Shown piece by piece: positions 22,801 through 55,170 of a stretch of 64,000 nt of DNA; position 1 is the stretch's first letter; the number at the start of each line of letters is the position of its first letter. This stretch comes from Candidatus Latescibacterota bacterium (GTDB taxonomy: Bacteria > Latescibacterota > UBA2968). The stretch is from assembly GCA_965204745.1 (NCBI GenBank), contig OZ242010.1:5152001-5216000 (forward strand). Reading direction: 5' to 3'. Below the pieces are notes generated by a model. It searched no databases. It had not been told where the DNA came from and worked only from the letters and a program-made list of their open reading frames with translations. Both the position numbers and the translations under genes were made by a program.

Positions 22801-22896
22801 ACAACTGACAACTTGAGAGGAACAGCGCGGTGGCCTTCTTGCCTCTTGCCTCTCACCTCTTGCCTGGCGGTTGGGCGAACGGGTGGAAACTGACCT
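22801..22896. repeat. 96-bp direct repeat, copy 1 (copy 2 at 24574-24669) flanking the first AAA gene
   Basis: acaactgacaacttgagaggaacagcgcgg...gggtggaaactgacct identical except 2 nt. Confidence 0.9.
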
Positions 22897-24490: not shown

Positions 24491-24573
24491 GGGTTATCCC
24501 TCAATTCATCTACAAATCCTCAAAGTGCGTCGGATGTTGGGGTTGTTGGGAGAGGACCGACAACTGACGACCA

Positions 24574-24669
24574 ACAACTGACAACTTGAGAGGAACAGCG
24601 CGGTGGCCTTCTTGCCTCTTGCCTCTCACCTCTTGCCTGGCGGTTGGGCGGCCGGGTGGAAACTGACCT
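24574..24669. repeat. 96-bp direct repeat, copy 2 (overlaps the 3' end of the 24626-26191 gene)
   Basis: See copy 1 at 22801-22896. Confidence 0.9.
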
Positions 24670-26191: not shown

Positions 26192-26381
26192 GGTGATCTC
26201 CAGTTGTTAGTCTGTGTGTCCTCACCTCGCCACCCATCCGCCCATGCGGCCTCACCTTTCTACTCATCCGGCCCGCCGCCCGTGCGTGCCCCCGGCCTCA
26301 TGCCCCAAGGGGTCAGCGATCAGCGTGGTGTCCGTCTTACGTCTCACCTCTAGGCCGGGTGGAAGGGTGGGGAACTCTTCC

Positions 26382-27956
26382 TCACATCCCCCAAACGCCG
26401 ATCTCAACCCCGCTGCTCGACATCCGGCGGCAGTGGAAAATTTTGTCCTTCCAACGCTTCCCCTCGCGCCGATCAAAAATCACCAAATGACCCGCCTCTG
26501 CATCGCAACGATCCATATACTCGGCGGTCTTTTCCAAGCCCTCGGCGATAGTGCGCTTCAAACTCTTGTGCAGAATTTTGCACTCGACCACGAACTTGCG
26601 CGGGCGCTCGCCCTGCGGCCAAATAATGTGCAAATCCGTACGCATGTGACCCAAACCATACTCGCGCTCGATATGTCCCCCACTGTTCACGATCCGTTGC
26701 AAAAACGCCTGCAACAACAACTGCGGTCCGGCCTCTCTGTATTGAAATCGCCCGACCCAGTGCTCGGAGTGCTCGCGGAAAAACACCTGAAACTCGACCA
26801 TCAACTTTTCCACATCCAAGCTGCCATCGGCATTCACATACCAAGCGGGGTCTTGGACGAGGCCCGTCTGCGTGGCGTACGTCAGTTCGCGCGGCACGAC
26901 CTCCGCGTAGATGGGATTGGCAATGCGGAGTGGGGTGTCTTGGGCGACCAAACCCAAGTCGCGGACGTACTCGAGGTCTCGGGTCGAAAACGCGCTCTGT
27001 TCGGTCCCGCTCAACAGCGGCTCAACAACGCGCCGCACGCGCTCCTCTTGGAGTTTGTCCGTCAGTTGATCGAGGTGCGTTTCCCGGCGCAGGATGAGTT
27101 GCTCGCGTGCGTGGAGGATGTCCGCATCGGTGATCTCGCGCCTCCGGTCTTCTGTAGCTTCGCCATAAAAGCAGGTCTCATCCGCCAGTGCGTTGACCAG
27201 CCACGGTTGCCCCTGCGTCTGCGTCCAAATCGTTTCCCGTGCGTCGGACGTGAACACCTGACCCGTCTCTTCGGTGTGCTGCGCGAGCAGGGCGAGCACT
27301 TGGTCCCGCGAAAAATCGCCCAAGCGCAAAGACCGCGCCTTAATGTTAAACGCACTCCCCCCAGTGATAATCGCATTGGACGAACGAGAGCGAATGCGGT
27401 AATCGCGCACGTCGCGTACTCCGCACAAAATCACACTTTGCGGAAAACGCTGCGGACGACGGTCATAGCCTGCGCGCAACTGTCGCAGCACGGACAGCAG
27501 GGCGTCTCCGAGCAGCGCGTCAATTTCGTCGATGAGCAACACGAGGGGCTTTGGGGCCGCCTCGGCCCAGCGCGTCAATGCCTCCTGTAAAGCAGCACCC
27601 GGTCCAAATTCAGCGAGGATATCGGACCATGCCTGGGACAAATATTCGTCGCCTATTGCGCGCGCCCGAGACGCCAACCCGGCCAAAATGGTGCGCGTCA
27701 CTTGTTCCACATCTTCGCGCATGGCCTGCCCGCCTTCGACATTGACATACACGCAACGGTAGTCGGCCTCGGCATTGAGCAAATCGCGCAGGGCGAGCAG
27801 GCCGGAGGTCTTGCCCGTCTGCCGGGGCGCGTGCATGACGAAATAGCGTTTGTCGCGGATGAGCCGGCGAATCTCATTGAGATTCAACCGTTCCAATGGC
27901 GGAATGCAGTAGTGATCCGCAACCACCACCGGCCCACTCGTATTAAAAAAGCGCAT
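26382..27956 (-). CDS. Second AAA-type ATPase with PD-(D/E)XK-like C-terminus (paralog of 22895-24490)
   Basis: 'MRFFNTSGP', 'APRQTGKTS', 'LLIDEID', 'EREYGLGHMRTDL...VECK'. Confidence 0.85.
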   Translation of the reverse strand: MRFFNTSGPVVVADHYCIPPLERLNLNEIRRLIRDKRYFVMHAPRQTGKTSGLLALRDLLNAEADYRCVYVNVEGGQAMREDVEQVTRTILAGLASRARAIGDEYLSQAWSDILAEFGPGAALQEALTRWAEAAPKPLVLLIDEIDALLGDALLSVLRQLRAGYDRRPQRFPQSVILCGVRDVRDYRIRSRSSNAIITGGSAFNIKARSLRLGDFSRDQVLALLAQHTEETGQVFTSDARETIWTQTQGQPWLVNALADETCFYGEATEDRRREITDADILHAREQLILRRETHLDQLTDKLQEERVRRVVEPLLSGTEQSAFSTRDLEYVRDLGLVAQDTPLRIANPIYAEVVPRELTYATQTGLVQDPAWYVNADGSLDVEKLMVEFQVFFREHSEHWVGRFQYREAGPQLLLQAFLQRIVNSGGHIEREYGLGHMRTDLHIIWPQGERPRKFVVECKILHKSLKRTIAEGLEKTAEYMDRCDAEAGHLVIFDRREGKRWKDKIFHCRRMSSSGVEIGVWGM

Positions 27957-28075
27957 AGCGATATTTCCTTCCGTGCGTGTTCTCATCCTCTCCGCCTCGC
28001 CACCCGTGCGTGCCCAACCTCTCCGCCTATCCGGCCGTGCCCCGCTCATCCACCCTGCCACCCGTGCGTGCCCAT

Positions 28076-28252
28076 CCCCCCGGCCCCGTTATTCGCTTCG
28101 CTCATTGTAGGCTACGCCTGTGCCTACAAGGAAAGGGGAGCATAGCTTGCTTGATGGATGAGAACAAGGGCTGTTTTTATGGCTTTGAGCCAGCGCATCC
28201 TGCGATTAAAAACCCGTCACACCACCCCTCGCAAAACCCATCTTCATTCCCC
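28076..28252. mobile_element. MITE-like repeat, copy A (right end truncated)
   Basis: Shares the core aaggaaaggggagcatagcttgcttgat...ctcgcaaaacccatc with copies B, C and D. Confidence 0.7.
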
Positions 28253-28253
28253 G

Positions 28254-28877
28254 TTAGCGGGGTATATTGGCACGCTGAATCTTATCCGTGCCCCGGTCTG
28301 TCCAGTACATCTTTCCGCGTTCCACATCCAGCGCGATGCCAACTGGATTGCTCGATGTTCTGATGATGAGGTCTTCGACATTCGAGCCATCGAGGTTGGC
28401 ACGCTGAATCTTAGCCGTGCCAACTATTTCCTTTATGTCCATCCAGTACATCATTCCGCGTTCCACATCCAGCGCGATGCCAACTGGATTGCTCGATGTT
28501 CTGGTGATGAGGTCTTCGACAATTGAGCCATCGAGGTTGGCACTGAGCCGTTGATCTTCTTCGATAATCAAGCCATCAAGGTTGGCACGCTGAATCTTCC
28601 TCGTGCCATAGTCCGTCCAGTACACCTTTTCACATCCCACATCCAGCGCGATGCCAACTGGCCTACTCAATCCTGTGGTGATGAGGTCTTCGACATTCGA
28701 GCCATCGAGGTTGGCACGCTGAATCTTAGCCGTGCCAACTATTTCCCCTATGTCTGTCCAGTACATCATTCCGCGTTCCACATCCAGTGCGATGTCCAAT
28801 GGATCCTCCAATCCTGTGGTGGTGAGGTCTTCAATTGATTGTTGTTTCTCGACGTAAGTATAAATTGCAAGGACCAA
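28254..28877 (-). CDS. LDL-receptor class B (YWTD) repeat module; probably the frameshifted C-terminus of the adjacent kinase
   Basis: Repeats 'IALDVERGMMYWTD...KIQRANLDGSNVEDL'; no convincing RBS of its own; reading frame begins inside the kinase TM segment. Confidence 0.8.
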   Translation of the reverse strand: MVLAIYTYVEKQQSIEDLTTTGLEDPLDIALDVERGMMYWTDIGEIVGTAKIQRANLDGSNVEDLITTGLSRPVGIALDVGCEKVYWTDYGTRKIQRANLDGLIIEEDQRLSANLDGSIVEDLITRTSSNPVGIALDVERGMMYWMDIKEIVGTAKIQRANLDGSNVEDLIIRTSSNPVGIALDVERGKMYWTDRGTDKIQRANIPR

Positions 28878-29907
28878 TCATGAGCACAACCACGCCCACG
28901 ACGATCCACACCATGCGACCTTCCTTACGATCCTTAACCGATTCTTGATCATGTGCAGGCTCAGGACGCTCAACATCGGGCGGTGGCGAGATTTCCGGCG
29001 CAGGAACCGGCGACGGATCATCAACAGGCGTGTCGTTCAACTCGGCGCGCCATTCGGACACACTTTGCGGACGGGCAGTCTCATCCACTTGTAGCGCGTG
29101 ATCGATAGCGGCGAGAAATTGGTGGCTCGCACGGCCCTTGCACCGATCCGAAACCGGAATCAGCGGATCGCGGCGCACCCTATCCATTGCCGGAATCGGC
29201 ACATCGTCGGTCAAGGCGCGATAGCACACGCACCCCAACGCATAAATATCTGTCCAAGGCCCTTGATTGCCCCGGCTTTCATATTGTTCGATAGGCGCGT
29301 AACCCGGCGTCACAATGGCTGTCACCGAACGGCTCATCGCACCCACAGCTTGACGCGCCGCGCCAAAGTCGATCAACACGGGCGAGCGATCCTCGGCGCG
29401 AATGACGATGTTGCCCGGCTTGATGTCCCGATGCAAAAAATCCGCACGATGCACCGCCGCCAAGCCATCGAGAATCGGATTCAGAATCGCCTTGAGTTCC
29501 GATTCGGTCAGCACCCCTTTGCGGTTGAGATACTCGGACAAAGTCTCGCCCTCGGCGTATTCCATCACGATATACGCCGTGTTGTGTTCTTCAAAAAAGC
29601 GATGCACCTTGACGAGATGGCGATGGTCAAATCGGGCTAAGGTGCGCGCTTCGTCCAAAAAGCGTTCCAGACCCCACTCAAAGTCGCCTTGAAACTCGCT
29701 CGCCTGCGGCACGACGCTGTTGTCGCTTGTGCGGATGGCGATATCCGAAGGCAGATATTCCTTGATCGCCACGGGTTTGTCCAAGTTGTGATCATACCCC
29801 AAATACGTCATGCCAAATCCTCCAAACCCGAGCACGCGCACCAGTTCGTATTCCTGGAGCCGATACCCATTGGGCAGGGCATTGATGGGTTGTTGTGCGT
29901 CGTTCAT
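28831..29907 (-). CDS. Hanks-type Ser/Thr protein kinase with Pro-rich linker and truncated TM
   Basis: 'LGFGGFG', 'VAIKE', 'HRDIKPGN', 'DFG', 'GYAPIEQ', 'DIYALG'. Confidence 0.93.
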   Translation of the reverse strand: MNDAQQPINALPNGYRLQEYELVRVLGFGGFGMTYLGYDHNLDKPVAIKEYLPSDIAIRTSDNSVVPQASEFQGDFEWGLERFLDEARTLARFDHRHLVKVHRFFEEHNTAYIVMEYAEGETLSEYLNRKGVLTESELKAILNPILDGLAAVHRADFLHRDIKPGNIVIRAEDRSPVLIDFGAARQAVGAMSRSVTAIVTPGYAPIEQYESRGNQGPWTDIYALGCVCYRALTDDVPIPAMDRVRRDPLIPVSDRCKGRASHQFLAAIDHALQVDETARPQSVSEWRAELNDTPVDDPSPVPAPEISPPPDVERPEPAHDQESVKDRKEGRMVWIVVGVVVLMIGPCNLYLRRETTIN

Positions 29908-30094
29908 GGGATCTATCCCCCGGCCCCTTTCCTACAAGGAAAGGGGAGCATAGCTTGCTTGATGAATGAGAACAAGGGCTGTTTTTATGGCTTTGAGCCA
30001 GCGCATCATGCGATTAAAAACCCGTCACACCACCCCTCGCAAAACCCATCCTAGTTCCCCCTTCCTCGTAGGAAGGGGGTTAGGGGGTAGGTCC
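29908..30094. mobile_element. MITE-like repeat, copy B
   Basis: Terminal inverted repeats GGA(T/C)CTATCCCC...GGGGTAGGTCC; internal hairpins; abuts the kinase start codon. Confidence 0.75.
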
Positions 30095-30176
30095 TCATAA
30101 GGAAAGGGGAGAAGTGCTTCTTTGATGGCTTATATCAATAGCAGTTCCGATGGCTTTGTGCAAGGGCATGTGGCAT

Positions 30177-30398
30177 GGGACCTATCCCCCCGGCCCCCTT
30201 TCCTACGAGGAAAGGGGGAGCATAGCTTGCTTGATGAATGAGAACAAGGGCTGTTTTTATGGCTTTGAGCCAGCGCATCATGCGATTAAAAACCCGTCAA
30301 TCCCCTCTCGCAAAACCCATCCGCGTTCCCCCTTCCTCGCAGGCACAGGCGTAGCCTACAACGAAGCGTAGCGAGTAACGGGGTTAGGGGGTAGGTCC
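30177..30398. mobile_element. MITE-like repeat, copy C
   Basis: ggacctatccccccggcccc...gggttagggggtaggtcc; near-identical core to copy B. Confidence 0.75.
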
Positions 30399-30488
30399 TC
30401 ATAAGGAAAGGGAGAGTAGGGCTTTTTTGCTTAGGCTGTTTTTCATCGTCTTGCGCGAGTGAATAATGCCATGAAAAACCAAACCCTC

Positions 30489-31550
30489 TCATTCCCCGCT
30501 TGCAGAGGAGTCTGGGGTCGCTGGTTTCACGGCTTGCGAATCCGGAGGGGACATTTCCTCGCTGGGGGCCGGTGCATCCCGGTTGCTGGATTCTGCCGGC
30601 TGTGTGGAGTCGGCTTTTGCGGTTGGCGTTTCAACAGCAGGGGGCGTTTCAACAGCGGTTGGCGTTTCAACGGGCGTGGATTGCCAGAATTTGTATCCGA
30701 TCAGCGCGGCCAAAAAGACGGCGCTGATCGCGAGTCCGATCAGCCCTCGTTTGCGTTTTGCGGGTGGCTTGCCCGAGGCCGCGCCCCAGTCGGCTTCTGG
30801 GGTGTACAGCAAAACCGTCGCGTTGTCCTGATGGGGGTGTTCAACCGCTACCACGGCTTCGATGAGGGCGCGGGCGCTGTCTTCTAGTGTCGCGTTTCGC
30901 GTGTGCTGTAAAATGCGTGCGATCTCCTCATCGTCAAGCGTCATCAAGCCATCGCTTGCCAGCAACAGGCGGTCGCCTTTTTTGATTGCAACCGGTTGCG
31001 ACGAGACATCGATCAGGCGGATCTCATCGCCCATCACGGCCGAGCGCAGGGCGTGGCGTTTGGGATCGGTCGCCGCTTCTTCTGCGGTCATGCGCCCGGC
31101 CGCGACCAAATCCTCAAACACGGACGCCATAGAGTGATCCGCATTCAACCGGCGCAACCGACCTTCGCGGAACAACCACATCGGGGAATCGCCCACGCTG
31201 ATCCACTCGATGCCGCGCTGTGAAATGACCGCGGCCACCAATGTTGACCCCATGCCCATGAGGTGGGGATTTTCGGCTATGGCATCGGCAAGGGCGGCAT
31301 TGGCCTCGTCGAGGCAATCGCGCAGCCGATCCGCAATGGGCCCTGAAGCGCGTTGGTAGGACTCGACAAAGGTTTTGCACAACAGACTACTCGCTGTCGC
31401 GCCGCCGACGTGCCCGCCCATGCCATCGGCGACCACCACCATGCCATCGATGCCCAAGTCGCGCCCATCCAACAAGCCGTAATCGTCCTCTTGATACGGC
31501 CGGTTGCCGGGAATTTGCAATGCGGCGAAGCGCCCGTCTAATCGTTTCAT
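30489..31550 (-). CDS. PP2C/PPM family Ser/Thr phosphatase with C-terminal TM and Pro/Thr-rich tail
   Basis: 'RPYQED', 'VADGMGGH', 'MGST', 'VGDS', 'ASDGL', 'DNAT'; TM 'LIGLAISAVFLAALIGY'. Confidence 0.93.
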   Translation of the reverse strand: MKRLDGRFAALQIPGNRPYQEDDYGLLDGRDLGIDGMVVVADGMGGHVGGATASSLLCKTFVESYQRASGPIADRLRDCLDEANAALADAIAENPHLMGMGSTLVAAVISQRGIEWISVGDSPMWLFREGRLRRLNADHSMASVFEDLVAAGRMTAEEAATDPKRHALRSAVMGDEIRLIDVSSQPVAIKKGDRLLLASDGLMTLDDEEIARILQHTRNATLEDSARALIEAVVAVEHPHQDNATVLLYTPEADWGAASGKPPAKRKRGLIGLAISAVFLAALIGYKFWQSTPVETPTAVETPPAVETPTAKADSTQPAESSNRDAPAPSEEMSPPDSQAVKPATPDSSASGE

Positions 31551-32185
31551 TTTGTCGCGCTCTCTTTGAGGTCTTGCCAATCAAACCCGTCGCCGCACAG
31601 GGGCACAAAGCGCAACACGGTGTTGCCGATGGCGATGTGGCTCAGTGCGGGCAATTCGACCGGCGTCAGCACGGGGACATCGCCCAGATAGGTCAAATTA
31701 GTGCCGCCGCCGTGTTGCACGTAAAATTTTCTGCCGCGCGGATCGTACGTGACAACGGCGTGTTCGTTGCGCGAAATTTGATCATCGCCAAAATCGAGCT
31801 TGACGCGGTCCGTTGCCCCGCGCCCAATGGCATTCATGCCATAGCCGAGTTGCATCGCCCGCCCCTTTCCCGGCCCTTCAACGACGACCAGCCACCCCAC
31901 GACCGGGTCGGACATGGCATCGGATTTCTCGGCGCGTTCTCGCATGCGCGCCCTGTCTTCCCGCCGGTCGCGCCCTCCGACGATCTGCGTCTTTTCCTGA
32001 TCCTGAACAGGGCGCGGCGAATCGCTTTCGCCCACCTTCACGGTCGGCGCGTCAAAATGCCCGGCATGCCGCTCTCCCGGCGGCGCGGGCGGCTGGGGCC
32101 TTTGGGGAGAGTCGGTCGGTTTGGTCGCCGCCTCCACGGTCTGCTCTTCGATGATCTTGCCATCGGGGCCTCGATAAACAGGCAT
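31547..32185 (-). CDS. FHA domain protein with disordered Thr-containing N-terminus
   Basis: 'VVGWLVVVEGPGKG', 'IGRG', 'ISRNEHA', 'TN'. Confidence 0.88.
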   Translation of the reverse strand: MPVYRGPDGKIIEEQTVEAATKPTDSPQRPQPPAPPGERHAGHFDAPTVKVGESDSPRPVQDQEKTQIVGGRDRREDRARMRERAEKSDAMSDPVVGWLVVVEGPGKGRAMQLGYGMNAIGRGATDRVKLDFGDDQISRNEHAVVTYDPRGRKFYVQHGGGTNLTYLGDVPVLTPVELPALSHIAIGNTVLRFVPLCGDGFDWQDLKESATK

Positions 32186-32219
32186 AGCGATATTCTCCTA
32201 TAAAGATGGGGTTGGCGTG

Positions 32220-32348
32220 AGCCACAAAAGGCACGAGCGGGGTACAACTGGCAACAGCCAGTTCAAAACACAAAAGGGGTACACCGTTCAAAGGCACGAG
32301 CGGGTACAACTGGCGACAGCCAGTTCAAAACACAAAAGGGGTACAACT
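32220..32348. repeat. Duplicated REP-like hairpin element (inverse of 16651-16720)
   Basis: gtacaactggc(a/g)acagccagttcaaaacacaaaagggg occurs twice. Confidence 0.75.
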
Positions 32349-32555
32349 GACGACTGACGTTCGCAGTTCAAATAAGGCATCAAACAAGTGCCCTCGCAAA
32401 ACACCCTCCGATCAAGCCATCACGCACAGCGCGTAAGTCCGTCTCGCAACCAACGTCCATTATGCAACCCACCTTGCAGGCTGGCGCATGTCGTTTTGTT
32501 ACAAAAGCGATTTGCGCTGTGCAAGCCCCTCGGCGTTTGAGAGCGGCATTTTTTG

Positions 32556-32587
32556 CTTACTTTTTTTTGCTGTTGAAAAAAAGTAAG
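32556..32587. terminator. AT-rich hairpin CTTAC-T8-loop-A7-GTAAG (possible terminator or repeat-element arm)
   Basis: Near-perfect inverted repeat in the gap downstream of the MotA-like gene. Confidence 0.35.
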
Positions 32588-32715
32588 TCGCCGAAGGCAT
32601 CGAAAGCAACAAACGAGGCTACAGGACCAAACGCATTAAATCAGCAAGCAACACATTTGCTAATCTGTGTGTAATGCAAAAAAAGGAGAATCGCGTCTCC
32701 CTCTCCGCCTCGGGA

Positions 32716-33492
32716 TCACTGCTCGTAGAGCCGGTTGATCAAATTGTCCAAACAGTATTGTCCAGACAGGTTCAGGGCCATCTCTTCTCGGTTTTGGGCA
32801 ATGTGCAGGGCAAACACCAGCACTGCCGATTGGATCAGCGCGAGCAAGGTCGTGTAAAACGCGACGCCCAGTCGCCCGGTGATTTCTGCCAACAACGTCG
32901 GATCCTGTGGATTTTGGACATTGGCAGCATAATCCAGCGCGAAGGCAATGCCCACAACCGTGCCGATAAACCCCAGCGTTGGGATCAGCCAAACGAGGTA
33001 CCGCACCATCGTGTATTTGAGTTCGAGTTCGTGCTGAAACAATTCGAGAGAGGAATTTAACAGCGCATTGGTCTGATTGACGGATCGGCTCCCCTGAAAT
33101 TGCAAAATACAGCGCGCGATCAACCGCGGCAAAAAGAACCGCCGGTCATCGGCCCGCGGGCGCACCTTTTGGTAAAACTCACCCAAGTCTCGCGCCCGCA
33201 ACATAATCGCATCCTCCTCCGGCAAATAGCGTTTGGATATTTGCGCCAGTTCCAGATGGGATTGGCGAAACCGCATCCACAATTCGCCACAGCCGACGAA
33301 AAACATCAGCCACATGACATTTTGAATCGTGAAGGGATAGGGGAAATTGTCCGTGTGGCGGTCGATCAAAAACGCACCCACTTGGGAATCGGGATGATCG
33401 AAAAGAAGGGTCATGATCGCGATGGCGAAACCGCCCGCGGCCGCGCTGATGCCGACTGCCGTTAAGCGTTGGTTTAATGCGCTGTCAACCAC
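32716..33492 (-). CDS. MotA/TolQ/ExbB proton channel family protein
   Basis: 'IPTLGFIGTVVGI' and 'LGVAFYTTLLAL' channel helices. Confidence 0.88.
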   Translation of the reverse strand: MVDSALNQRLTAVGISAAAGGFAIAIMTLLFDHPDSQVGAFLIDRHTDNFPYPFTIQNVMWLMFFVGCGELWMRFRQSHLELAQISKRYLPEEDAIMLRARDLGEFYQKVRPRADDRRFFLPRLIARCILQFQGSRSVNQTNALLNSSLELFQHELELKYTMVRYLVWLIPTLGFIGTVVGIAFALDYAANVQNPQDPTLLAEITGRLGVAFYTTLLALIQSAVLVFALHIAQNREEMALNLSGQYCLDNLINRLYEQ

Positions 33493-33856
33493 ATCGATCT
33501 CCTATGATTTCTCCGGTGTCGGGATTGCGCCGCACAGGGCCTCGGTGTCTGTCTTCTTTGGGAATGGGCGTTGACCGTGCCGCTGAACCCCGACCGACCA
33601 TGGCGATGAGTTGGCGCGCCGTGGTCTGATAACGACCGAGCATAATGACCTCTGTCGGACTGATAAAGGCTTGTCTGATGGGGACCCAAGCGCCGTCCCG
33701 CGCGACATAGCTCCCGCCCGTGCTGCCGCAATCCGTGAGGTAGAACGCGCCCTGCCGGGTCGCGATCAACTCGGCATGAACGCGGGAAACCGACTCATCG
33801 CGGAGTTGAATATCCACATCCGAACCGCGCCCGATTCGATAAATCGCATCCTTCAT
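33485..33856 (-). CDS. Small FHA domain protein
   Basis: 'IGRG...DESVSRVHA...DCGSTGGS'. Confidence 0.85.
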   Translation of the reverse strand: MKDAIYRIGRGSDVDIQLRDESVSRVHAELIATRQGAFYLTDCGSTGGSYVARDGAWVPIRQAFISPTEVIMLGRYQTTARQLIAMVGRGSAARSTPIPKEDRHRGPVRRNPDTGEIIGDRCG

Positions 33857-33860
33857 CTCA

Positions 33861-34214
33861 TCACCCCGGTTTTGCCCCCACCAGCGTGCCGCCATTGCGC
33901 GTTGTCAACTGCACCAAAAATTCGATAAAATCGCGTTGTCCAACGTAATTGCCAACCGCGGCGGCGTGGATGGGGATTCGCTGTGCGTTGCGGCGCGTGA
34001 CCGCATCGACCACGTCGATCCATGGCTCTGAGGGCGCGCCATCGCTCAACAAGATAATCGCTTCGGGCCGAAGTTCAATTGCCGCGAGCAATGCCGCGCG
34101 CGTGGGCGTGCCGCCAGCTACGCGCCTCATCCACCGATTGATCGTAGATGTAATGCGCCCGTGCGCCTGCTTTTCCACCTGAAAATACTGCCTATTTTCG
34201 GGCCAATAGTGCAA
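33861..34214 (-). CDS. VWA domain C-terminal half (in frame with 34215-34703, separated by one TAG)
   Basis: 'GGTPT..AL' and 'IILLSDGAP' MIDAS elements. Confidence 0.7.
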   Translation of the reverse strand: MHYWPENRQYFQVEKQAHGRITSTINRWMRRVAGGTPTRAALLAAIELRPEAIILLSDGAPSEPWIDVVDAVTRRNAQRIPIHAAAVGNYVGQRDFIEFLVQLTTRNGGTLVGAKPG

Positions 34215-34703
34215 CTACGTCACCCTATTTGGGGCGTGAAACCCGATCATACACAATTCGATTTTCGACCGAAAGGCATCGAGCATCGCCTGCACAGACA
34301 ATTTTATGAATTGGCGATAATCCTGTCTGCCCGCCTGATAAATACTGCCCGACATATCCACGACCAGCACGAGTTTCTGCGCTTTCGTCTCGATGCCCAA
34401 CAAAACAGCGGTGTTGTCGATCTCCCGTTGCAGTTTGGCGTTTTCGCGCTTCAACTTCTCGTTCTCTGAATTCGGCGATTGGCTCGAGCGTCGCATGGCT
34501 TCAACCCGTTTTTCGAGTTGTTCGTTTTCCGCTTTCAACTTCTCGTTCTCGCGTTTCAATTTCTCGCTGTCTATGTTCGCGTTCAGGTTGGGAAAAAACG
34601 GCAACAAGATGATGGCGATGAGGATAAAGGCCCCCAGCGCCGATGCGAACAAATCGAGCGCGGACATGCTGAAGATATTGATCTCTCGGTTGCGCGTTTT
34701 CAC
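34215..34703 (-). CDS. N-terminal TM (ExbD/MotB-like Asp) + coiled coil + VWA N-terminal half; interrupted by an amber codon
   Basis: 'REINIFSMSALDLFASALGAFILIAIILLP'; 'VLVVDMSGS' DxSxS; ACG-TAG-TTG-CAC at 34220-34209. Confidence 0.75.
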   Translation of the reverse strand: MKTRNREINIFSMSALDLFASALGAFILIAIILLPFFPNLNANIDSEKLKRENEKLKAENEQLEKRVEAMRRSSQSPNSENEKLKRENAKLQREIDNTAVLLGIETKAQKLVLVVDMSGSIYQAGRQDYRQFIKLSVQAMLDAFRSKIELCMIGFHAPNRVT

Positions 34704-34718
34704 GGCCAGGCCCTCTCG

Positions 34719-36095
34719 CTAAAGTTTTGAGACCATGAACGCCAAGGTGCCCAGCGCGACCGTGGCGCCGTAGTCCAACTGCGCGGGGCGAAATGGCGAC
34801 AAGCGGCGAGCGTTCAAAAATGTGCCGTTGCTCGAGTTCAAATCCTCGACGTAAAACCGATCATCCCGAACCGAGATTCGCACATGCCGTCTGGATACAT
34901 TTTCATCTCGAACGACTTCATCCACCAAGTCGGGATGCCGCCCGAGCGAAAGCCCCAGGCGTTGCCCCGCGAATCTCTCGGGCGATAGTGCGATGCGAAC
35001 GCGATTGCCCCGGCTGTCAAAACCGGACAGCACCAGACCGCGGTTTGGCAGGGGGCTAGTGGCTGGTTTTTTTGCGACTGGCTGAGGTTGCCCGGCGGAT
35101 CGTTTTTGCACCATCTCACCGCCGCCTCGTCGGCTGATCCGCCGGCTCATGCCTTCTGCTATGCGGACGATCTGTTGCCTGGGTTTTCTGAGGGCGAGTG
35201 CCAAGGCGACCAATGTCAGGAGGCCCAAGAATATCCCCCATGTCAGAAATTGATCGCGTGCCTCTTCGGCTTGGATCCGCGCTCGTTCCGCTTGTTTCGC
35301 GGCGCGATCCGCCCCTCGCAGTGCCTTTTGCATCTCTTCGGTACTGCCCACGCCAGTTGCCGGCAAGCACGCATGGGTCTCTGATCGAAAGGCGATATTG
35401 TGCGTTTGCAAGAGCCTTGCGAGTTCCTCGATGTGCGAGGACCAGTAAATCCCCATGGCATGGGGCACGCGCTCGGTCCCACCGGAAGGACTACGAATGA
35501 CGATGAGAGACGCTTGTGTGTTCACGCCGATCACCCTGCCGCAATCATCCACCAAGGGGCCGCCGCTGTTGCCCGGATTGGTCGGCGCGTTGTGTTGAAT
35601 AATCCCGAGGTTTTGGCTGTGCCACGCGCCCGTAAAAACGCGCCCAATGACGCCGTCCTGCACGGTTGGATCGTGCGCGGGCCTTTCCCTGTCCGCGCCG
35701 CCGGGATAGCCGATGGCCCAGACTTTCTGCCCTTTTTTGGGTTGTGCGAGCGAAAATGTGATGGGCGGGAGGGTTATCCCCAAAACGCGGACAATAGCCA
35801 AGTCGAGTTGCCGGGAGGTGGCGATCACTTCGGCGTCATACATCCTGCTCGAATTTGTCGGTATGGCTTTGACCTGCCGCCCGCCCGCAATGACGTGGGC
35901 GTTTGTGGCGATATAACCGCGATTGTCGATCACGAATCCCGTGCCCGCCCCAACGCCCCGATGCGTCCGCGTGACGATCCGCACGACACTCTTTTCAAGC
36001 GCGGCAAAATCCGGCTCGGCCATCGCATCGCGCCCGCAACAGAGAACGGATAGGACCAGAACGGCAAAACGCCAATAGTTGAATTGGCACGGCAT
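34719..36095 (-). CDS. Trypsin-like (S1) serine protease + TM + cytoplasmic FHA domain
   Basis: Signal peptide; triad 'TNAHV', 'DLAIV', 'GNSGGP'; TM 'WGIFLGLLTLVALALAL'; FHA 'LGR...VSRRH...DLNSSNGT'. Confidence 0.9.
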   Translation of the reverse strand: MPCQFNYWRFAVLVLSVLCCGRDAMAEPDFAALEKSVVRIVTRTHRGVGAGTGFVIDNRGYIATNAHVIAGGRQVKAIPTNSSRMYDAEVIATSRQLDLAIVRVLGITLPPITFSLAQPKKGQKVWAIGYPGGADRERPAHDPTVQDGVIGRVFTGAWHSQNLGIIQHNAPTNPGNSGGPLVDDCGRVIGVNTQASLIVIRSPSGGTERVPHAMGIYWSSHIEELARLLQTHNIAFRSETHACLPATGVGSTEEMQKALRGADRAAKQAERARIQAEEARDQFLTWGIFLGLLTLVALALALRKPRQQIVRIAEGMSRRISRRGGGEMVQKRSAGQPQPVAKKPATSPLPNRGLVLSGFDSRGNRVRIALSPERFAGQRLGLSLGRHPDLVDEVVRDENVSRRHVRISVRDDRFYVEDLNSSNGTFLNARRLSPFRPAQLDYGATVALGTLAFMVSKL

Positions 36096-36096
36096 G

Positions 36097-37629
36097 TCAC
36101 GCCTCCACCAAACGCACCTGAAAAACGACCGGTCCCAGTTCGAGTTGATCATTGCTTTGCAACACCATCGGTTCACCCGGATCGAGCGCATGCCCATTGA
36201 TCCGCGTGCCATTTAGGGTATTCAAGTCCTCGGCATAGAGATCGCCGCCGGAAACGGTCAGCCTGACGTGGGCGCGGGAAATGGATTCGTGGTCGATCAC
36301 AAAATCGGCTTTGTCCGGGCTCCGCCCGAGGATCGCGCCGGATTGATCGCCCAATGCAAGCGCCGATAGACGCAACGCGAATGGCCTATCAGCGTGGTCT
36401 CGACCTTCCAACACGCAGCCAAAAGGCGCGGGTTGCGCTGCGGCTCTTCGCGCTGCTACGGCCTCTTGTTCTGCCTCGCTCAAGCGGGACTCGGCGCTTT
36501 GCAACCGCGCTTTCTTGCGGCGGGAAGAAATCAGCCAGCCGAGCAATGCGATCAGCAGCAAGGCCGCGCTGATGGCGATAACCCATTGCGACCGCTGCGC
36601 GGTCCTCTCCTCGACGACTGCGAGGCTATCGGCTTTTGCTTTGGCCTGCTCTCGCGCTGTTTTGACGCTGTTAGCTGCCGCGGCTTTGATGCTGTCCGCC
36701 CGTGCCCGATTGACCGAATCCGCCCGCGCTTGTTCTGCTTTGAGACTGTCTGCCACCGCTCGTTTGACCGAATCCGCCCGCGCCTTGGCGCGTTCTGCTT
36801 TTAGGCGTGCGGCGCGTTCTGCGCGTACTCGCTTCTCTGCGGCTTGGACGCTGTCCGCCATCGCTCGCTTCACGGAATCCGCCTGCGCCTGTGCTGCTTT
36901 GACGCTGTCCGTTGCGGCTTTGCGCGCTTGTTCGGCGCGTTCAATCGCGCTTGAGCACGCTTCTTCAACGACGGTGTAGGCAATGCCCCGGCCCATCAGC
37001 GCGGCGATGATGTCGTTGCTGCGTAGGGCAAAGACCGTCCCGCGCGGCTCTGCGTTTTTGCGAAACGGCCAGCGTCCGCGTTCCAAGTCCGGCGTGTTGA
37101 TGCCGACCACGTCCCCGCATTCATTGAACACGGGCATCCCAAAGGCTTTGGACGTCACGACGGCATTGTGATGGAGCAGGTGGACCACGGGATCGCCCGC
37201 TTTCTCACCCGGCAAAGTGTGGTAAGTGCCGATGGTCCCCTGAGAAATCCGCACGCTGTCGCCCATGCCAAACCCCAAGGTCCTCACGGCGCGGCCCACA
37301 GCGGCCCCTTGTTCGGACAAGTTCAGCGCGGGCAAGCCCAACCCCTGCACGCGCAACAGCGCCAAGTTCATCTCCCGCTTGGCAAACACTTGCCGCGCCA
37401 CGATTTCAGCGCCCGTCTTCAGGGATACGACCGTGAATCGCTCTGCATCAGCCAAGAGATGGGCATTGGTCAGCACATACCCCGCTTCATCGACGACAAA
37501 GCCACTTCCTTCCGCCGCGAGTCGGCTACCATCATGAGCACGCACCCGCACAATGCTTTCTACCTGCGCCCAAGCAGAACTCGCGAACAGGAACACCACA
37601 AGATGCACCATCACAGCAACGACACGCAT
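36097..37629 (-). CDS. Inactive trypsin-like domain + Ala-rich coiled-coil stalk + TM + FHA domain
   Basis: 'TNAHL' kept, 'NLALL' (D to N), 'KAFGMP' instead of GNSGGP; (A)DSVK repeats; FHA 'LGR...ISRAH...DLNTLNGT'. Confidence 0.85.
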   Translation of the reverse strand: MRVVAVMVHLVVFLFASSAWAQVESIVRVRAHDGSRLAAEGSGFVVDEAGYVLTNAHLLADAERFTVVSLKTGAEIVARQVFAKREMNLALLRVQGLGLPALNLSEQGAAVGRAVRTLGFGMGDSVRISQGTIGTYHTLPGEKAGDPVVHLLHHNAVVTSKAFGMPVFNECGDVVGINTPDLERGRWPFRKNAEPRGTVFALRSNDIIAALMGRGIAYTVVEEACSSAIERAEQARKAATDSVKAAQAQADSVKRAMADSVQAAEKRVRAERAARLKAERAKARADSVKRAVADSLKAEQARADSVNRARADSIKAAAANSVKTAREQAKAKADSLAVVEERTAQRSQWVIAISAALLLIALLGWLISSRRKKARLQSAESRLSEAEQEAVAARRAAAQPAPFGCVLEGRDHADRPFALRLSALALGDQSGAILGRSPDKADFVIDHESISRAHVRLTVSGGDLYAEDLNTLNGTRINGHALDPGEPMVLQSNDQLELGPVVFQVRLVEA

Positions 37630-37754
37630 GGAGACCTCCTCTTGTATCGTAAGCAGTCAGCAAAACAATCGGTCAGCACATCCATTGCCTTGGGGTGGAA
37701 AGGGGGGACTGACAACTGACAACTGACAACTGACCACTGCATCTCCCCTCTTTG

Positions 37755-39293
37755 CTATTGCTCTTTTTTTAGAAGACGCATGCCAGCGTTCTTCATTTGC
37801 CACAGAGTAATCAACCAGACCACAACCATAATAATCGCTGTGATTACCCAAATGCCCGCTATCGTAATTATACGCTCATCATTGCTGTTTATCACCGCTA
37901 GTAGTATTGCCGATAGTAGTATTGCCAACCACGGCAAGCAACAGAATGACAAACTGAAAAATGTACTGATCTTTGGATCTGTGATCTCGGCATTGAGGGC
38001 TTTGGCGAGACCGTGAATTGCAACGAAGTACCAGTAGAAATTGAATAATGGAATAAAGAGAAAGCCAATGGCTTTGCCTGGGGTTGTCCTCGCTTTGTCG
38101 GCGGGGATGAGCGACCACAATTTGTGCAGAACGAGGCAACCGAACACGTCAGCAATGATCACGGCTATGGTGTCCAACGCCAACGACCCTGAGATAAGCG
38201 GCAGGGGTACCGTAGCAACAAGGAAAATCCAGTGGGTACTGAACCACGTTTGCAAACGCTTCGCGTCGTCGACTTTGGGGGCTGAAGGAGGGCGATTGGG
38301 CAATTCGTCAATGGTCCTTTCATTTTTGAAATGCCCTTGCGGCAGTGCCGAATCCACCGCCAACTCGGCGTGCCATTCGGACGCCGCCGAGGAGCCGCTT
38401 GGGGAGGAGATTGAAGCGGTGTCGGTCAACGCATCGCGCCATTCGGACACACTTTGCGGCCGGGCATCCTCATCTACTTGTAGCGCGTGATCGATAGCGG
38501 CGAGAAAATGTTGGCTCGCACGGCCCTTGCACCGATCCGAAACTGGAATCAGCGGATCGCGGCGCACCCTATCCGTTGCATCAGCGGGCACCTCATCCGT
38601 CAACGCGCGATAGCACACCCCGGCCAATGCGTAAATATCCGTCCAAGGCCCTTGATTCCCGCGGGTCGAATACTGCTCTATCGGCGCGTATCCCGGCGTC
38701 ACAATGGAGGTCACAGAACGGCTCTTCGCACCCACCGCTTGACGCGCCGCGCCAAAGTCGATCAACACGGGCGAGCGATCCTCGGCGCGAATGACGATGT
38801 TGCCAGGTTTGATGTCCCGATGCAAAAAATCCGCACGATGCACCGCCGCCAAGCCGTCGAGAATCGGATGCAGAATCGCCTTGAGCTCCGACTCGGTCAA
38901 GATGCCCTTGCGGTTGAGATACGCGGACAGGGTCTCGCCCTCGGCGTATTCCATCACGATATACGCCGTGTTGTGCGCTTGAAAAAAATGATGCACGCGC
39001 ACGATATTTGGATGCTGAAACCGCGCCAAAATTCGGGCTTCATCTACAAATCGATCCAGCCCCCACTGAAAGTCCGCTACAACTTGAGACGACTGCGGCA
39101 CCACGGACAGATCGCTTTCGCGGATCGCGAGATCAGCGGGCAGATACTCCTTGATCGCCACGGGAATATCCAGCGCGTGATTCCAGCCGAGGTAGGTAAT
39201 GCCAAACCCGCCGTGCCCGAGGACGCGGTGAAACTCAAAATCCCCAATGCGCGTGCCCTGCGGCAAGGCCAATCTGTGTTGTGCTTCGTCCAT
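37755..39293 (-). CDS. Hanks-type Ser/Thr kinase with multi-TM C-terminal module
   Basis: 'LGHGGFG', 'HRDIKPGN', 'DFG', 'GYAPIEQ'; C-terminal hydrophobic helices with 'TPGKAIGFLFIPLFNFYW'. Confidence 0.92.
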   Translation of the reverse strand: MDEAQHRLALPQGTRIGDFEFHRVLGHGGFGITYLGWNHALDIPVAIKEYLPADLAIRESDLSVVPQSSQVVADFQWGLDRFVDEARILARFQHPNIVRVHHFFQAHNTAYIVMEYAEGETLSAYLNRKGILTESELKAILHPILDGLAAVHRADFLHRDIKPGNIVIRAEDRSPVLIDFGAARQAVGAKSRSVTSIVTPGYAPIEQYSTRGNQGPWTDIYALAGVCYRALTDEVPADATDRVRRDPLIPVSDRCKGRASQHFLAAIDHALQVDEDARPQSVSEWRDALTDTASISSPSGSSAASEWHAELAVDSALPQGHFKNERTIDELPNRPPSAPKVDDAKRLQTWFSTHWIFLVATVPLPLISGSLALDTIAVIIADVFGCLVLHKLWSLIPADKARTTPGKAIGFLFIPLFNFYWYFVAIHGLAKALNAEITDPKISTFFSLSFCCLPWLAILLSAILLAVINSNDERIITIAGIWVITAIIMVVVWLITLWQMKNAGMRLLKKEQ

Positions 39294-39331
39294 GGCGTCC
39301 CTCCGATATTATGGTACCTATCCCCTTGTTC

Positions 39332-39387
39332 AGTGATCCGCAACCACCGGCCCACTCGTATCAAAAAAGCGCGTAGCGATATTCCTT
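39332..39387 (-). pseudogene. Degenerate stub of the 5' end of the AAA gene at 27956
   Basis: Matches 27911-27970 with ATG to ACG, a 3-nt deletion and an immediate TGA. Confidence 0.75.
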
Positions 39388-39471
39388 GTCCGAGCGCGGA
39401 AAATAAAAGAAAGAGACAAGGGGAGCAGGGCTTGCTTGAAGGATGGCCGCAAGGGCTGTTTTAATGGGTTG

Positions 39472-39691
39472 GGGACCTATCCCCCCGGCCCCCTTTCCTA
39501 CAAGGAAAGGGGGAGCATAGCTTGCTTGAGTGATGGATCAAGGGCTGTTTTAATGGCTTTGAGCGAGGGCGTTATGCGATTAAAACCCGTCACATTCCCT
39601 CTCGCAAAACCCATCTGCGTTCTCCCTTCCTCGCAGGCACAGGCGTAGCCTACAACGAGTGAAACGAGTAACGGGGGTAGGGGGTAGGTCC
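39472..39691. mobile_element. MITE-like repeat, copy D
   Basis: gggacctatccccccggcccc...gggggtagggggtaggtcc; core as in copies A-C. Confidence 0.75.
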
Positions 39692-39795
39692 TGATAATGT
39701 TAAAAAGGAACGGGGAGCAGGGGTTTCTTAAAGGGTGATCGCATTGGCTATTTTGATGGCTTTGGATGAGTGCTCGACAGCCGCATGGGTATATA

Positions 39796-45133: not shown

Positions 45134-45161
45134 AGCGATCTCCTCCTTTGTATTTCGCGCA

Positions 45162-54269: not shown

Positions 54270-54324
54270 GGCGCGCTCAACCTGATGGGAGACGAGCTGA
54301 ATCCCGGATTGAGATCGCGAGGTC

Positions 54325-55161: not shown

Positions 55162-55170
55162 TTTTGCCTC

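Follow-up and report, generated by a model that had tools for sequence, protein, structure and literature searches.

Which function could bring protein kinases, a PP2C phosphatase, FHA proteins, trypsin-fold proteins and a MotA/ExbB-like subunit together at one place in a bacterial chromosome? We addressed this question in a window of 64,000 nucleotides from a Candidatus Latescibacterota genome, in which a first-pass annotation had read a run of genes as a candidate undescribed envelope system.

Gene content and inheritance of the cluster

A Pfam search of positions 28254-39293 recovered all nine genes that had been listed, co-oriented on the minus strand and with the domains ascribed to them (Table 1). 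Their spacing within blocks had been described as very short or overlapping. This held: the dead and live protease genes are 1 nt apart, the F1 stop overlaps the MotA start and there are further overlaps elsewhere. The row as a whole is broken by three longer gaps of 125 nt, 530 nt (MotA to F2) and 581 nt (PP2C to STK2). Repeats are present in all three. The MotA-F2 gap is about 16 nt in relatives other than the two closest species. The 530-nt insert has no Rfam family match, and we conclude that it is repeated DNA because contig depth there was very high in public sequencing runs.

Table 1. Features of the cluster and their positions in the window.
Feature	Position	Strand	Evidence
Hanks Ser/Thr kinase STK1, multi-TM C-terminal domain (DUF4328-like)	37755..39293	-	Pkinase 130 bits
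Pseudoprotease: signal/TM, trypsin-like domain, coiled repeats, TM, cytoplasmic FHA	36097..37629	-	Trypsin_2 74 bits, FHA 58 bits
Active HtrA-like protease (no PDZ), TM, cytoplasmic FHA	34719..36095	-	Trypsin_2 109 bits, FHA 62 bits
Axle/stator subunit, TM-coiled coil-vWA	33861..34703	-	VWA_3 24 bits; fold from model
Small FHA protein F1	33485..33895	-	FHA 53 bits
TolQ/ExbB/MotA-like channel subunit	32716..33492	-	PF01618 39 bits
Intergenic insert MotA-F2, 530 nt	32186..32715	no strand	62-nt tandem duplication
FHA protein F2	31547..32185	-	FHA 29 bits
PP2C phosphatase, C-terminal TM, periplasmic tail	30489..31580	-	PP2C_2 46 bits
Hanks kinase STK2 with TM segment	28831..29907	-	Pkinase 139 bits
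YWTD (LDL-receptor class B) beta-propeller repeats	28254..28877	-	Ldl_recept_b 98 bits

We found the MotA subfamily at 564 confirmed places in contigs representing one genome per species, and took the best 80 of the 564 for locus layouts. By the submitters' labels, these 80 loci belong to Latescibacterota (34), Gammaproteobacteria (19), Acidobacteriota (14), Alphaproteobacteria (7), Binatia (3), Gemmatimonadota (2) and Acidimicrobiaceae (1). Co-occurrence was scored by tblastn with the window's proteins in a full-flank set of 56 loci that have 10 kb on either side. All six component types were present together in 48 of the 56 loci: F2 and a kinase were each found in 55, PP2C and the axle protein each in 53, a trypsin-FHA protein in 51 and F1 in 41, and F2 comes after MotA in 55. 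The genes flanking the cluster in the window occurred in at most one of the 56 loci, and a search within the clusters turned up no additional conserved gene family. When 55 ORFs from six distant loci were scanned with Pfam, the domain set was identical to that of the window.

The genes could be chance neighbours, or separate modules that do not cooperate. Such an explanation would fit the gene order, which varies among lineages, and the loci that miss one or more parts, among them a Marithrix locus (L091) with no kinase, PP2C or F2 nearby. However, in seven labelled phyla or classes the MotA-like gene is accompanied by the component set but not by the same surrounding genes, which contradicts the chance-neighbour explanation and leaves it a negligible probability. 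Because the same set recurs around this gene in other phyla, the arrangement is beyond chance. Judged by gene neighbourhoods, we conclude that the cluster is a co-inherited system of a predicted TolQ-like motor, kinases, PP2C, FHA readers and proteases, present across several bacterial phyla, in agreement with the first-pass reading of the genes as one system.

The channel-type protein and its predicted axle partner

The MotA_ExbB protein (258 aa) scored 39.0 bits against a PF01618 cut-off of 22.9 and matched no NCBIfam model. Its structural model (pLDDT 84) was compared with the PDB using Foldseek. The top matches were to TolQ or TolQR, namely 9avi_A (TolQ; E 1.4e-3, probability 1.00) and 8vlw_B (TM-score 0.71 on the target); ExbB, MotA and PomA followed, and no match at all reached E 0.001. 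The modelled fold of the protein is thus TolQ-like. Members of the family are 58-96% identical across phyla and share the motif GQYCLDNLINRLYE, and 15 sequences show no variation at T172, T178, T214 or T215, which may be counterparts of the pore-lining Thr ring that ExbB/MotA proteins have in their last two TM helices. The protein has no conserved cytoplasmic threonine, which makes the motor itself an improbable target of phosphorylation.

Proteins of the MotA/ExbB type form ion-driven motors with an Asp-bearing single-TM partner, and such a partner had been proposed here. Pfam found no ExbD, TolR or MotB family gene in the cluster, either in the window or in the six distant loci. Judging by its N-terminal helix, the partner is the vWA protein itself. 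This single TM helix carries the conserved Asp within SALDLFASALGAF; in the helix NIFSMSALDLFASALGAF (Asp17), 57 of 59 sequences retain the residue, and both exceptions are mis-called ORFs. The protein has no ExbD or MotB Pfam match and matches the PADLOC ZorB models only weakly (E 6e-4 to 8e-4). The protein is predicted to have an ExbD/TolR-like trans-pore helix and a coiled-coil stalk leading to a vWA head in the periplasm, where B subunits of the ExbD/TolR/MotB type have an ExbD-like or OmpA-like domain.

The VWA_3 match of the window's protein lies under the cut-off of 27 bits, and its N-terminal half is 72% identical to the closest relative. In this assembly the ORF contains an in-frame TAG at 34215-34217. 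Position 34217 is G in contigs from all four public runs examined, which makes the codon CAG rather than TAG, and near-identical vWA proteins of 280 aa have Q at this position. In the model of a near-identical intact protein the head matched vWA domains, best ITIH1 (E 6e-8), which gives the axle head a predicted vWA fold. It contains a complete MIDAS motif (DMSGS...T...D). At SAR86, Pseudohongiella and Binatia loci, a small beta-rich head replaces the vWA domain on the axle.

Phosphorylation components and the trypsin-fold pair

The kinases, the phosphatase and the FHA proteins of the cluster exceeded the cut-offs of the Pkinase, PP2C_2 and FHA HMMs. Both kinases keep the HRD, DFG and VAIK catalytic motifs, as read in the translations. 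STK1 has five predicted C-terminal TM segments, to which DUF4328 is a weak match, and its ortholog in the closest relative is 69% identical, as compared with 79-91% for most core genes. The phosphatase retains the DGMGG, SDG and DN motifs, a TM segment at 280-298 and a periplasmic tail rich in Pro, Thr and Glu. The STK2 frame stops inside the TM segment, and the YWTD repeats, which contain an internal 251-nt duplication, lie in a different frame from the kinase and TM. A single public-run contig over the STK2/YWTD junction (28758-28982) was identical to the assembly. The YWTD repeats are probably the ectodomain of STK2, now out of frame.

Between one and six kinases were found per locus, with varied ectodomains (ankyrin, FGE-like, Sel1, YWTD, PDZ and multi-TM). 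The 101 kinase tails comprised 30 ankyrin, 25 FGE-sulfatase and 4 Sel1 tails, a few other types and 34 without a Pfam match; among those examined for TM segments, 21 of 28 ankyrin and 19 of 22 FGE tails have one ahead of the ectodomain. The ankyrin, Sel1 and YWTD ectodomains are eukaryote-like, which could be explained if symbionts used the system for adhesion to, or remodelling of, the surface of a host or partner, with kinases sensing host molecules and the vWA protein and proteases modifying the surface. The stretch is present in runs labelled as sponge metagenomes (two studies) as well as in other marine runs, and a variant is carried on a plasmid in the plant symbiont Rhizobium leguminosarum, both of which agree with this explanation. 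However, ankyrin ectodomains are matched in frequency by FGE-like ones, the members from SAR86, Pseudohongiella, LSUCC0112, Vicinamibacterales and Binatia are not known to be symbionts, and the conserved components include none that is secreted or located in the outer membrane. We consider a symbiont surface function very unlikely.

The proposed role of the FHA domains as readers agrees with their sequences, since all four (29-62 bits) have an intact GR...SxxH...N signature. FHA domains prefer a hydrophobic +3 residue. Two near-invariant threonines with FHA-type +3 residues are candidate phosphosites. The first lies in the C-terminal tail of F1 (VRRNPxTGEII), where 45 of 47 sequences have the Thr, 39 of these 45 with I, V or L at the +3 position. 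The second is Thr66 of F2 (T-Q-I-V), present in 69 of 70 sequences; it lies in a disordered region that follows the conserved N-terminal peptide MPVYRGPDGKIIEE and precedes the FHA domain and a C-terminal CGxxFxW. In this layout F2 resembles the GarA/OdhI switches, which are small proteins with a phospho-acceptor Thr in a disordered N-terminus, then FHA. Those switches are tied to metabolic enzymes or the divisome, whereas F2 is linked to a membrane motor and showed no sequence-family membership, matches of F1 and F2 to the NCBIfam OdhI and FhaB/FipA models being under the cut-offs.

The soluble proteins F1 and F2 flank MotA in nearly every locus, which raises the alternative that signals pass from the outside in. 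The motor, with its periplasmic heads and proteases, would detect envelope damage or a bound ligand, and FHA proteins, kinases and PP2C would relay the signal inward, with the kinases not gating the motor. ZorAB of Zorya has been proposed as an envelope-side sensor, and F1 and F2 resemble outputs of the GarA/OdhI or FipA type at their sub-cut-off scores. In addition, the available text on Esr, an actinobacterial threat-sensing system, describes an FHA output protein that is phosphorylated after threat sensing (PMC13622651). In contrast, the diverse ectodomains belong to the kinases, which fits kinases as inputs, and the cluster has no conserved transcription factor or other cytoplasmic effector. 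We regard inward relay as unlikely and favour a motor switched by the kinases, as set out below.

The catalytic residues of the two trypsin-FHA proteins differ. The live protease has an H-D-S triad, as do 39 of 43 relatives in its group. In the pseudoprotease the triad is H-N-F, without Asp and Ser; among relatives of the dead group H-N-F occurs in 31 of 53 and H-D-S in only 2 of 53. By these residues, a putative live/dead protease pair is conserved. The ORF of the live protease reaches 36212, and its start is probably the Met at 36095, 1 nt past the stop of the upstream gene. The pseudoprotease has predicted TM segments at 3-21 and 350-368 and periplasmic coiled repeats rich in Ala, Asp, Ser, Val and Lys. 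The trypsin-FHA proteins have no PDZ match, a TM helix and FHA occupying the C-terminal part; their scores against the HtrA/DegS NCBIfam models were all far under the cut-offs, and no TolA/TonB-like polar motif was found in their TM helices. At 10 of the best 80 loci (layout 'Y Td Vn Vc M F2 P K'), a lone protease-like gene matches the inactive paralogue, with an H-N-F triad in the one designated L043, and F1 was also not seen at these ten loci. The Rhizobium variant has an X-TM-FHA protein that is not a protease. The single dead-type loci and the Rhizobium protein argue against proteolysis as the essential output.

Relation to known machines and a proposed mechanism

A 2025 paper in Mol Biol Evol predicted that TolQ-like pentamers pair with vWA proteins bearing a trans-pore helix, termed TPH-vWA (PMC12204202). 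By the features described in the available text, the window's motor is alike: a tolQ-like gene adjoins a TM-anchored vWA gene with no tolR or exbD nearby, and the anchor helix, with its conserved Asp, is proposed to lie inside the pentamer. The TPH-vWA family is said there to occur 'predominantly in heterologous pairs'. The window, by contrast, has a single vWA gene; we found two axle-type matches per locus in L060, L061, L079, L090, L092, L098 and L101. In that text the word 'kinase' is absent, and the sole match beginning with 'FHA' is FhaC.

A precedent is the gliding machine Agl-Glt of Myxococcus xanthus. The available text on it (PMC11761067) describes a TolQ/TolR-type proton motor with inner-membrane proteins that bear cytoplasmic FHA domains, the FHA of GltG being predicted to attach to the pentamer of TolQ-like AglR from the cytoplasmic side, and a vWA protein, CglB, as the working end. 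Agl-Glt differs in that its TolR-like subunits are separate, its transducers are TonB-like, many of its Glt proteins lie in the periplasm and outer membrane, and its vWA adhesin sits in the outer membrane. The cluster has its vWA on the axle subunit, adds kinases, PP2C and trypsin-fold modules, and has no conserved outer-membrane part. In Esr and in MoxR-vWA conflict systems, as far as the available texts describe them, diversified extracytoplasmic sensors likewise feed a vWA protein, a kinase/phosphatase and an FHA output, but their vWA proteins are cytoplasmic and a MoxR AAA+ ATPase is employed (PMC13622651, PMC7159879). We found no MoxR gene in the cluster, where energy would come from proton motive force through the TolQ-like channel. 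The first-pass annotation knew of no characterised system with this combination. For the full set this stands in our searches, which found it described in no paper; the motor core had been predicted in 2025, and a TolQ-like motor, FHA and a vWA adhesin are already joined in the described parts of Agl-Glt.

In T6SS, the Hanks kinase PpkA, the PP2C PppA and the FHA protein Fha1 switch a membrane machine post-translationally, and PpkA has a periplasmic vWA domain. The cluster is alike in placing kinase, PP2C and FHA around a membrane machine. The sheath gene TssC (PF05943) was not found in the 5.48-Mb single-contig genome, while a control search found PF05943 in E. coli, so the cluster is not a T6SS module; the annotation had also noted no T6SS genes adjacent. 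The TagH model TIGR03354 scored 33-38 bits against a cut-off of 120, and the ORFs flanking the cluster are unrelated. We rejected a T6SS regulatory module.

The Zorya core is a MotAB-type motor (ZorA/ZorB), and Zorya has a long ZorA tail, a peptidoglycan-binding ZorB domain and ZorC/D or ZorE effectors. Like Zorya, the cluster is an accessory motor of MotAB type, unlinked to flagella, Ton or Tol and patchily distributed. It could serve defence of this kind against phages or other invaders, with variable receptors that detect them at the envelope, the infection then being aborted or blocked by the motor and proteases. We found the system in 10 of 20 genomes of the genus, in 0 of 4 from the family's other genera and in 1 of 16 from the sister family. 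Such patchiness favours defence, as do the diversified sensors, the presence of two or three copies in some genomes (three in CBDCDC010000002.1, two each in OZ244561.1 and CBDETY010000003.1) and the toxin-antitoxin-like or AAA ATPase neighbours at some loci (RES, UPF0175, DUF4143). However, the PADLOC check that had been suggested yielded generic kinase models (PD-T4-6, mad6) and weak ZorA/ZorB matches, with no effector; ZorA2 matched at E 3e-5 over 85 residues, and no Zor model beyond ZorA/ZorB matched among 11 proteins. The cluster lacks any conserved nuclease, NTPase or NADase, and a search of 50,697 phage records found no homolog. We judge a defence function decidedly unlikely. Membership of Zorya itself was rejected, as the MotA lacks the long tail and there is neither a peptidoglycan-binding ZorB domain nor ZorC/D/E.

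Tentatively, and with a confidence just short of even, we favour a single machine in the inner membrane with a TolQ-like ion-driven motor at its core, switched by kinases and equipped with tethered periplasmic modules. The MotA/ExbB-like protein most likely forms a pentameric channel, whose two central trans-pore helices, both bearing the invariant Asp, most likely come from the vWA protein; a coiled-coil stalk and two MIDAS-bearing heads of this protein would reach into the periplasm. We infer this 5:2 stoichiometry, and likewise the kinase-substrate pairs, the direction of signalling and the target. Membrane kinases would sense periplasmic ligands and phosphorylate threonines, for which F2 Thr66 and the F1 tail Thr are the best candidates. 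The FHA domains of F1, F2 and both trypsin-fold tails would read these marks, and reading them would cause the motor and its tethered modules to be assembled, engaged or released, with PP2C resetting the switch. The first-pass interpretation is thereby partly supported: as it proposed, phosphorylation may bring the proteases together with the motor, and the output may be proteolysis, adhesion or defence. In the periplasm, the vWA heads and the live/dead HtrA-like pair may act on an envelope protein or a foreign one, and proton motive force would provide the energy or the positioning for this action.

Gene content and surroundings of the cluster

The first-pass annotation had listed nine co-oriented items, and we found all of them on the minus strand, between 28254 and 39293, with topologies that hydrophobicity scans reproduced. 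Within blocks, adjacent genes are 1 nt apart or overlap, and three wider gaps of 125, 530 and 581 nt contain local repeats. The change of frame from the second kinase (STK2) to the YWTD repeats falls within the TM-coding stretch, and the one short public contig that spans the site shows the same sequence. Among public sequencing runs, no RNA run containing the stretch was listed. The vWA ORF is interrupted by an in-frame TAG. Because plus-strand position 34217 is G, not A, in contigs from four of four public runs (four studies), giving CAG (Gln), and near-identical 280-aa proteins in public collections carry Q at this position, we conclude that the TAG is private to the assembly or strain, or an error. 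The same evidence ruled out decay of the system as its explanation.

Features of the cluster and its surroundings (positions in the window)
Feature	Positions	Strand	Remark
Hanks kinase STK1, multi-TM tail	37755-39293	minus	1st in transcription order
Trypsin-fold/TM/FHA protein, dead (pseudoprotease)	36097-37629	minus	2nd
Trypsin-fold/TM/FHA protein, live	34719-36212	minus	3rd; probable start 36095
TM/coiled-coil/vWA (axle) protein	33861-34703	minus	4th
In-frame TAG in vWA ORF	34215-34217
Small FHA protein F1	33485-33895	minus	5th
MotA/ExbB-family protein	32716-33492	minus	6th
Second FHA protein F2	31547-32185	minus	7th
PP2C, C-terminal TM	30489-31580	minus	8th
Second kinase STK2, with TM	28831-29907	minus	9th
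YWTD repeats	28254-28877	minus	after STK2; different frame
41-nt direct repeat, two copies	39343-39383, 27925-27965		95% identical
AAA-like ATPase gene	26382-28061
Intergenic repeats, 70-130 nt	28123-28284, 29931-30404, 39413-39775		flank both kinase genes
MotA-F2 insert	32186-32715		530 nt
62-nt tandem duplication	32240-32345		within the insert
STK1/pseudoprotease spacer	37630-37754
Two paralogous AAA_35/AAA_22-type ATPase genes around an ORF	22895-28061		531 and about 525 aa; ORF 521 aa, no Pfam domain
WG-repeat/O-methyltransferase fusion	41121-45175		554 aa; positions cover this row and the next together
GT4 glycosyltransferase ('GT4-conflict' match included) and radical-SAM/SPASM fusion	41121-45175		797 aa
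Low-G+C stretch	54001-56000		0.464 vs 0.54-0.61 across rest of window

The cluster is flanked by two AAA-like ATPases, a domain-less ORF, the WG-repeat O-methyltransferase and the glycosyltransferase/radical-SAM fusion; in three related loci (L035-L037), a homologue of the flanking ATPase also adjoins the system. One copy of the 41-nt repeat spans the start and first codons (MRFFNTSGP...) of the ATPase gene, and an orphan second copy is found immediately upstream of STK1. The 11.4-kb cluster thus lies between two copies of the 5' end of this gene. A 22-nt core of the intergenic repeats was rejected as a genome-wide element, as four of its five copies in the source genome are inside the cluster. 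The MotA-F2 insert is common to the closest species only. Both the insert and the STK1/pseudoprotease spacer fall in bins with a summed contig depth in public runs about 9-300x that of neighbouring bins, and because contigs connect the two, they share a repeated element.

Co-inheritance across genomes

The MotA-like protein falls in a subfamily that is sharply conserved, with 58-96% identity among the best 120 of 2845 matches. It is present as one copy in the source genome, and homologues turned up in 10 of the 20 other genomes of the same genus, in 1 of 16 from the sister family and in none of four from the family's other genera. In a contig scan that took one genome for each species, 564 of 589 candidate places for the subfamily were confirmed, and the best 80 of these became our locus set. 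By submitters' labels, these comprised Latescibacterota (34), Gammaproteobacteria (19), Acidobacteriota (14), Alphaproteobacteria (7), Binatia (3), Gemmatimonadota (2) and Acidimicrobiaceae (1). Identity near 77-79% across phyla we take as a lead to transfer, short of proof, because short contigs may have been assigned to the wrong bin.

One rival reading, highly improbable, is that the genes of the cluster are chance neighbours. We searched the 56 loci having 10 kb on either side by tblastn with the window's proteins, and detected F2 and a kinase in 55 each, PP2C and the axle protein in 53 each, a trypsin-FHA protein in 51 and F1 in 41. All six component types (F1 lies outside the six) occurred together in 48 of the 56. 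The eight incomplete loci lack a protease, axle protein or PP2C, and one in Marithrix (L091) is without kinase, PP2C and F2. Each gene flanking the cluster in the window recurs in at most one of the 56; the co-conservation that had been proposed as a check holds for the cluster and stops at its borders. Six distant loci, scanned with Pfam over 55 ORFs, likewise yielded the same domain set, with unrelated genes at the borders. Clustering of 346 unassigned ORFs within the clusters revealed no further widely shared family and no conserved outer-membrane part; it recovered only smaller groups, namely stand-alone ankyrin proteins in 11 loci, a lipoprotein of collagen-like/YWTD type in 7 and, in 4, a protein with a PPC domain. 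Taken together, we conclude that the cluster genes almost certainly form one system.

A putative motor, phospho-switch and periplasmic modules

The predicted structure of the MotA-like protein (pLDDT 84) best matched TolQ, followed by TolQR, ExbB, MotA and PomA. The cluster has no ExbD/TolR/MotB gene. The vWA protein begins with R-E-x-N-I-F-S-M-S-A-L-D-L-F-A-S-A-L-G-A-F, and its helix Asp is conserved in 57 of 59 sequences, the other two being mis-called ORFs. Heptad-like repeats of variable length follow the helix and lead to a head, which in the window's lineage is a vWA domain with the MIDAS motif D-M-S-G-S...T...D, and its model resembles the vWA domains of ITIH1, CLCA1, alpha2-delta and BatB. 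In other lineages the head is either of a second vWA type or small, beta-rich and non-vWA. We regard a 5:2 motor whose axle is the vWA protein as probable. 'TPH-vWA' motors with this arrangement were predicted in 2025 (PMC12204202); in that paper, the term 'kinase' is absent and the sole match beginning with 'FHA' is FhaC. The nearest studied parallel is Agl-Glt, in which a TolQ-like pentamer is predicted to bear an FHA domain of GltG on its cytoplasmic face and the working end is a vWA adhesin (PMC11761067).

As read from the translations, both kinases retain VAIK, HRD and DFG, PP2C retains its metal-binding Asp motifs, and all four FHA domains retain GR...SxxH...N. F2 starts with a conserved peptide, MPVYRGPDGKIIEE, followed by a disordered stretch; its Thr is present in 69 of 70 sequences, with chiefly V, A, Y or I at +3. 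The F1 C-terminus reads VRRNPxTGEII, with the Thr in 45 of 47 sequences and I/V/L at +3 in 39 of those 45. We found no conserved cytoplasmic Thr in the MotA-like protein. The F2 and F1 Thr residues are the best candidate acceptor sites, and we infer their phosphorylation; whether an FHA/pThr switch operates at them we regard as evenly balanced.

Loci carry one to six kinases. Among 109 kinase ORFs, eight were too short for a tail, and a Pfam scan of the remaining 101 tails identified ankyrin (30), FGE-sulfatase (25), Sel1 (4) and PG_binding_1 (2) domains, one each of PDZ, PEGA, TM2, DUF4328, TerB+DnaJ and beta-helix, and no match in 34. Of the 30 ankyrin tails, 28 were examined, and 21 of these have a TM segment ahead of the domain; of the 25 FGE tails, 22 were examined and 19 have one. 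In the comparison with the closest relative, STK1 is 69% identical and the vWA N-terminal half 72%, whereas most core proteins are 79-91% identical. A rival reading, in our view unlikely, takes the cluster for an outside-in sensor.

The live protease group has the triad H-D-S in 39 of 43 sequences, and the dead group has H-N-F in 31 of 53 and H-D-S in just 2. Ten of the 80 loci have a single protease-like gene, for which the inactive paralogue is the best match; the one triad checked among them, in L043, is H-N-F. A sub-lineage (L043, L044, L049, L050, L058, L065 and L066) has no match to the active protease or F1; in their place it encodes, upstream of the pseudoprotease or vWA gene, a lipoprotein that contains long collagen-like repeats (GPQ/GPE); all of these loci but L049 have YWTD repeats. 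A variant in Rhizobium leguminosarum, on a conjugative 1.33-Mb plasmid, encodes a non-protease X-TM-FHA protein. Because of this variant and the loci with a single protease-like gene, we conclude that the constant theme is 'periplasmic module - TM - cytoplasmic FHA', and that proteolysis as such is not constant. The divergent Rhizobium locus (strain BT01, a cultured bacterium; plasmid pRlBT01d, 153390-174055) comprises two kinases and two PP2C genes, together with three FHA proteins, an axle protein of 245 aa, a MotA about 51% identical and a protein of 1610 aa that has no Pfam domain. Another rival reading, a symbiosis factor, we consider improbable. The trypsin-FHA proteins were searched for a TolA/TonB-like polar motif in their TM helices and none was found, so their docking on the pentamer in the manner of TolA or GltG is an inference. 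An FHA-FHA-trypsin architecture listed in Bacteroides (PMC2605481) is unlike the trypsin-fold/TM/FHA order of the cluster.

Comparison with known systems and possible function

In the genome, a single contig 97.65% complete, we found no T6SS sheath gene, which argues against a T6SS regulatory module. For a defence system, a rival that we consider improbable, PADLOC gave only generic kinase models and weak ZorA/ZorB matches, with no system-level match, and tblastn found no MotA homologue in phage records. NCBIfam gave no model at cut-off and no equivalog match for the cluster proteins, and Rfam no family in 27000-41000. The earlier statement that no characterised system has this combination agrees with our finding no paper on the full cluster among CC-licensed PMC papers and bioRxiv.

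We tentatively propose that the cluster encodes a phosphothreonine-gated TolQ-like motor. Sensor kinases would write phosphothreonine marks on F1, F2 or both, and the four FHA domains would read them, so that the pentamer is assembled or engaged with the tethered periplasmic modules; PP2C would reset the switch. Output in the periplasm would come from the vWA heads together with the live/dead pair of proteases; that it consists in proteolysis or binding of an envelope or foreign target is possible though doubtful. An improbable extension is a machine that handles proteins in the ATP-free periplasm at the expense of energy: one of many interchangeable kinase ectodomains would catch a ligand, capture would lead to phosphothreonine-dependent docking of the rotary motor, vWA heads on its axle would grip the ligand, and the motor would pull or present it to the membrane-tethered, HtrA-like live/dead pair. 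If true, cytoplasmic AAA+ unfoldase-proteases would have in it a proton-powered counterpart, serving as a programmable device for surface surveillance or remodelling.

Ion-driven 5:2 motors drive flagella, Ton uptake, Tol-Pal, gliding and Zorya defence, and we know of none under Hanks kinase, PP2C and FHA switching. If the phosphothreonine-gated motor is borne out, it would be the first such member of this class, and a rare case of cytoplasmic phospho-signalling that controls periplasmic protease modules via a transmembrane tether. Because the family is widespread (564 places) and sharply conserved, it offers a defined, testable entry to the function of 'orphan' TolQ-like motors, and since some carriers of variants are in culture (Nioella ostreopsis, strain LSUCC0112 and, on the plasmid, R. 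leguminosarum), genetics is feasible.
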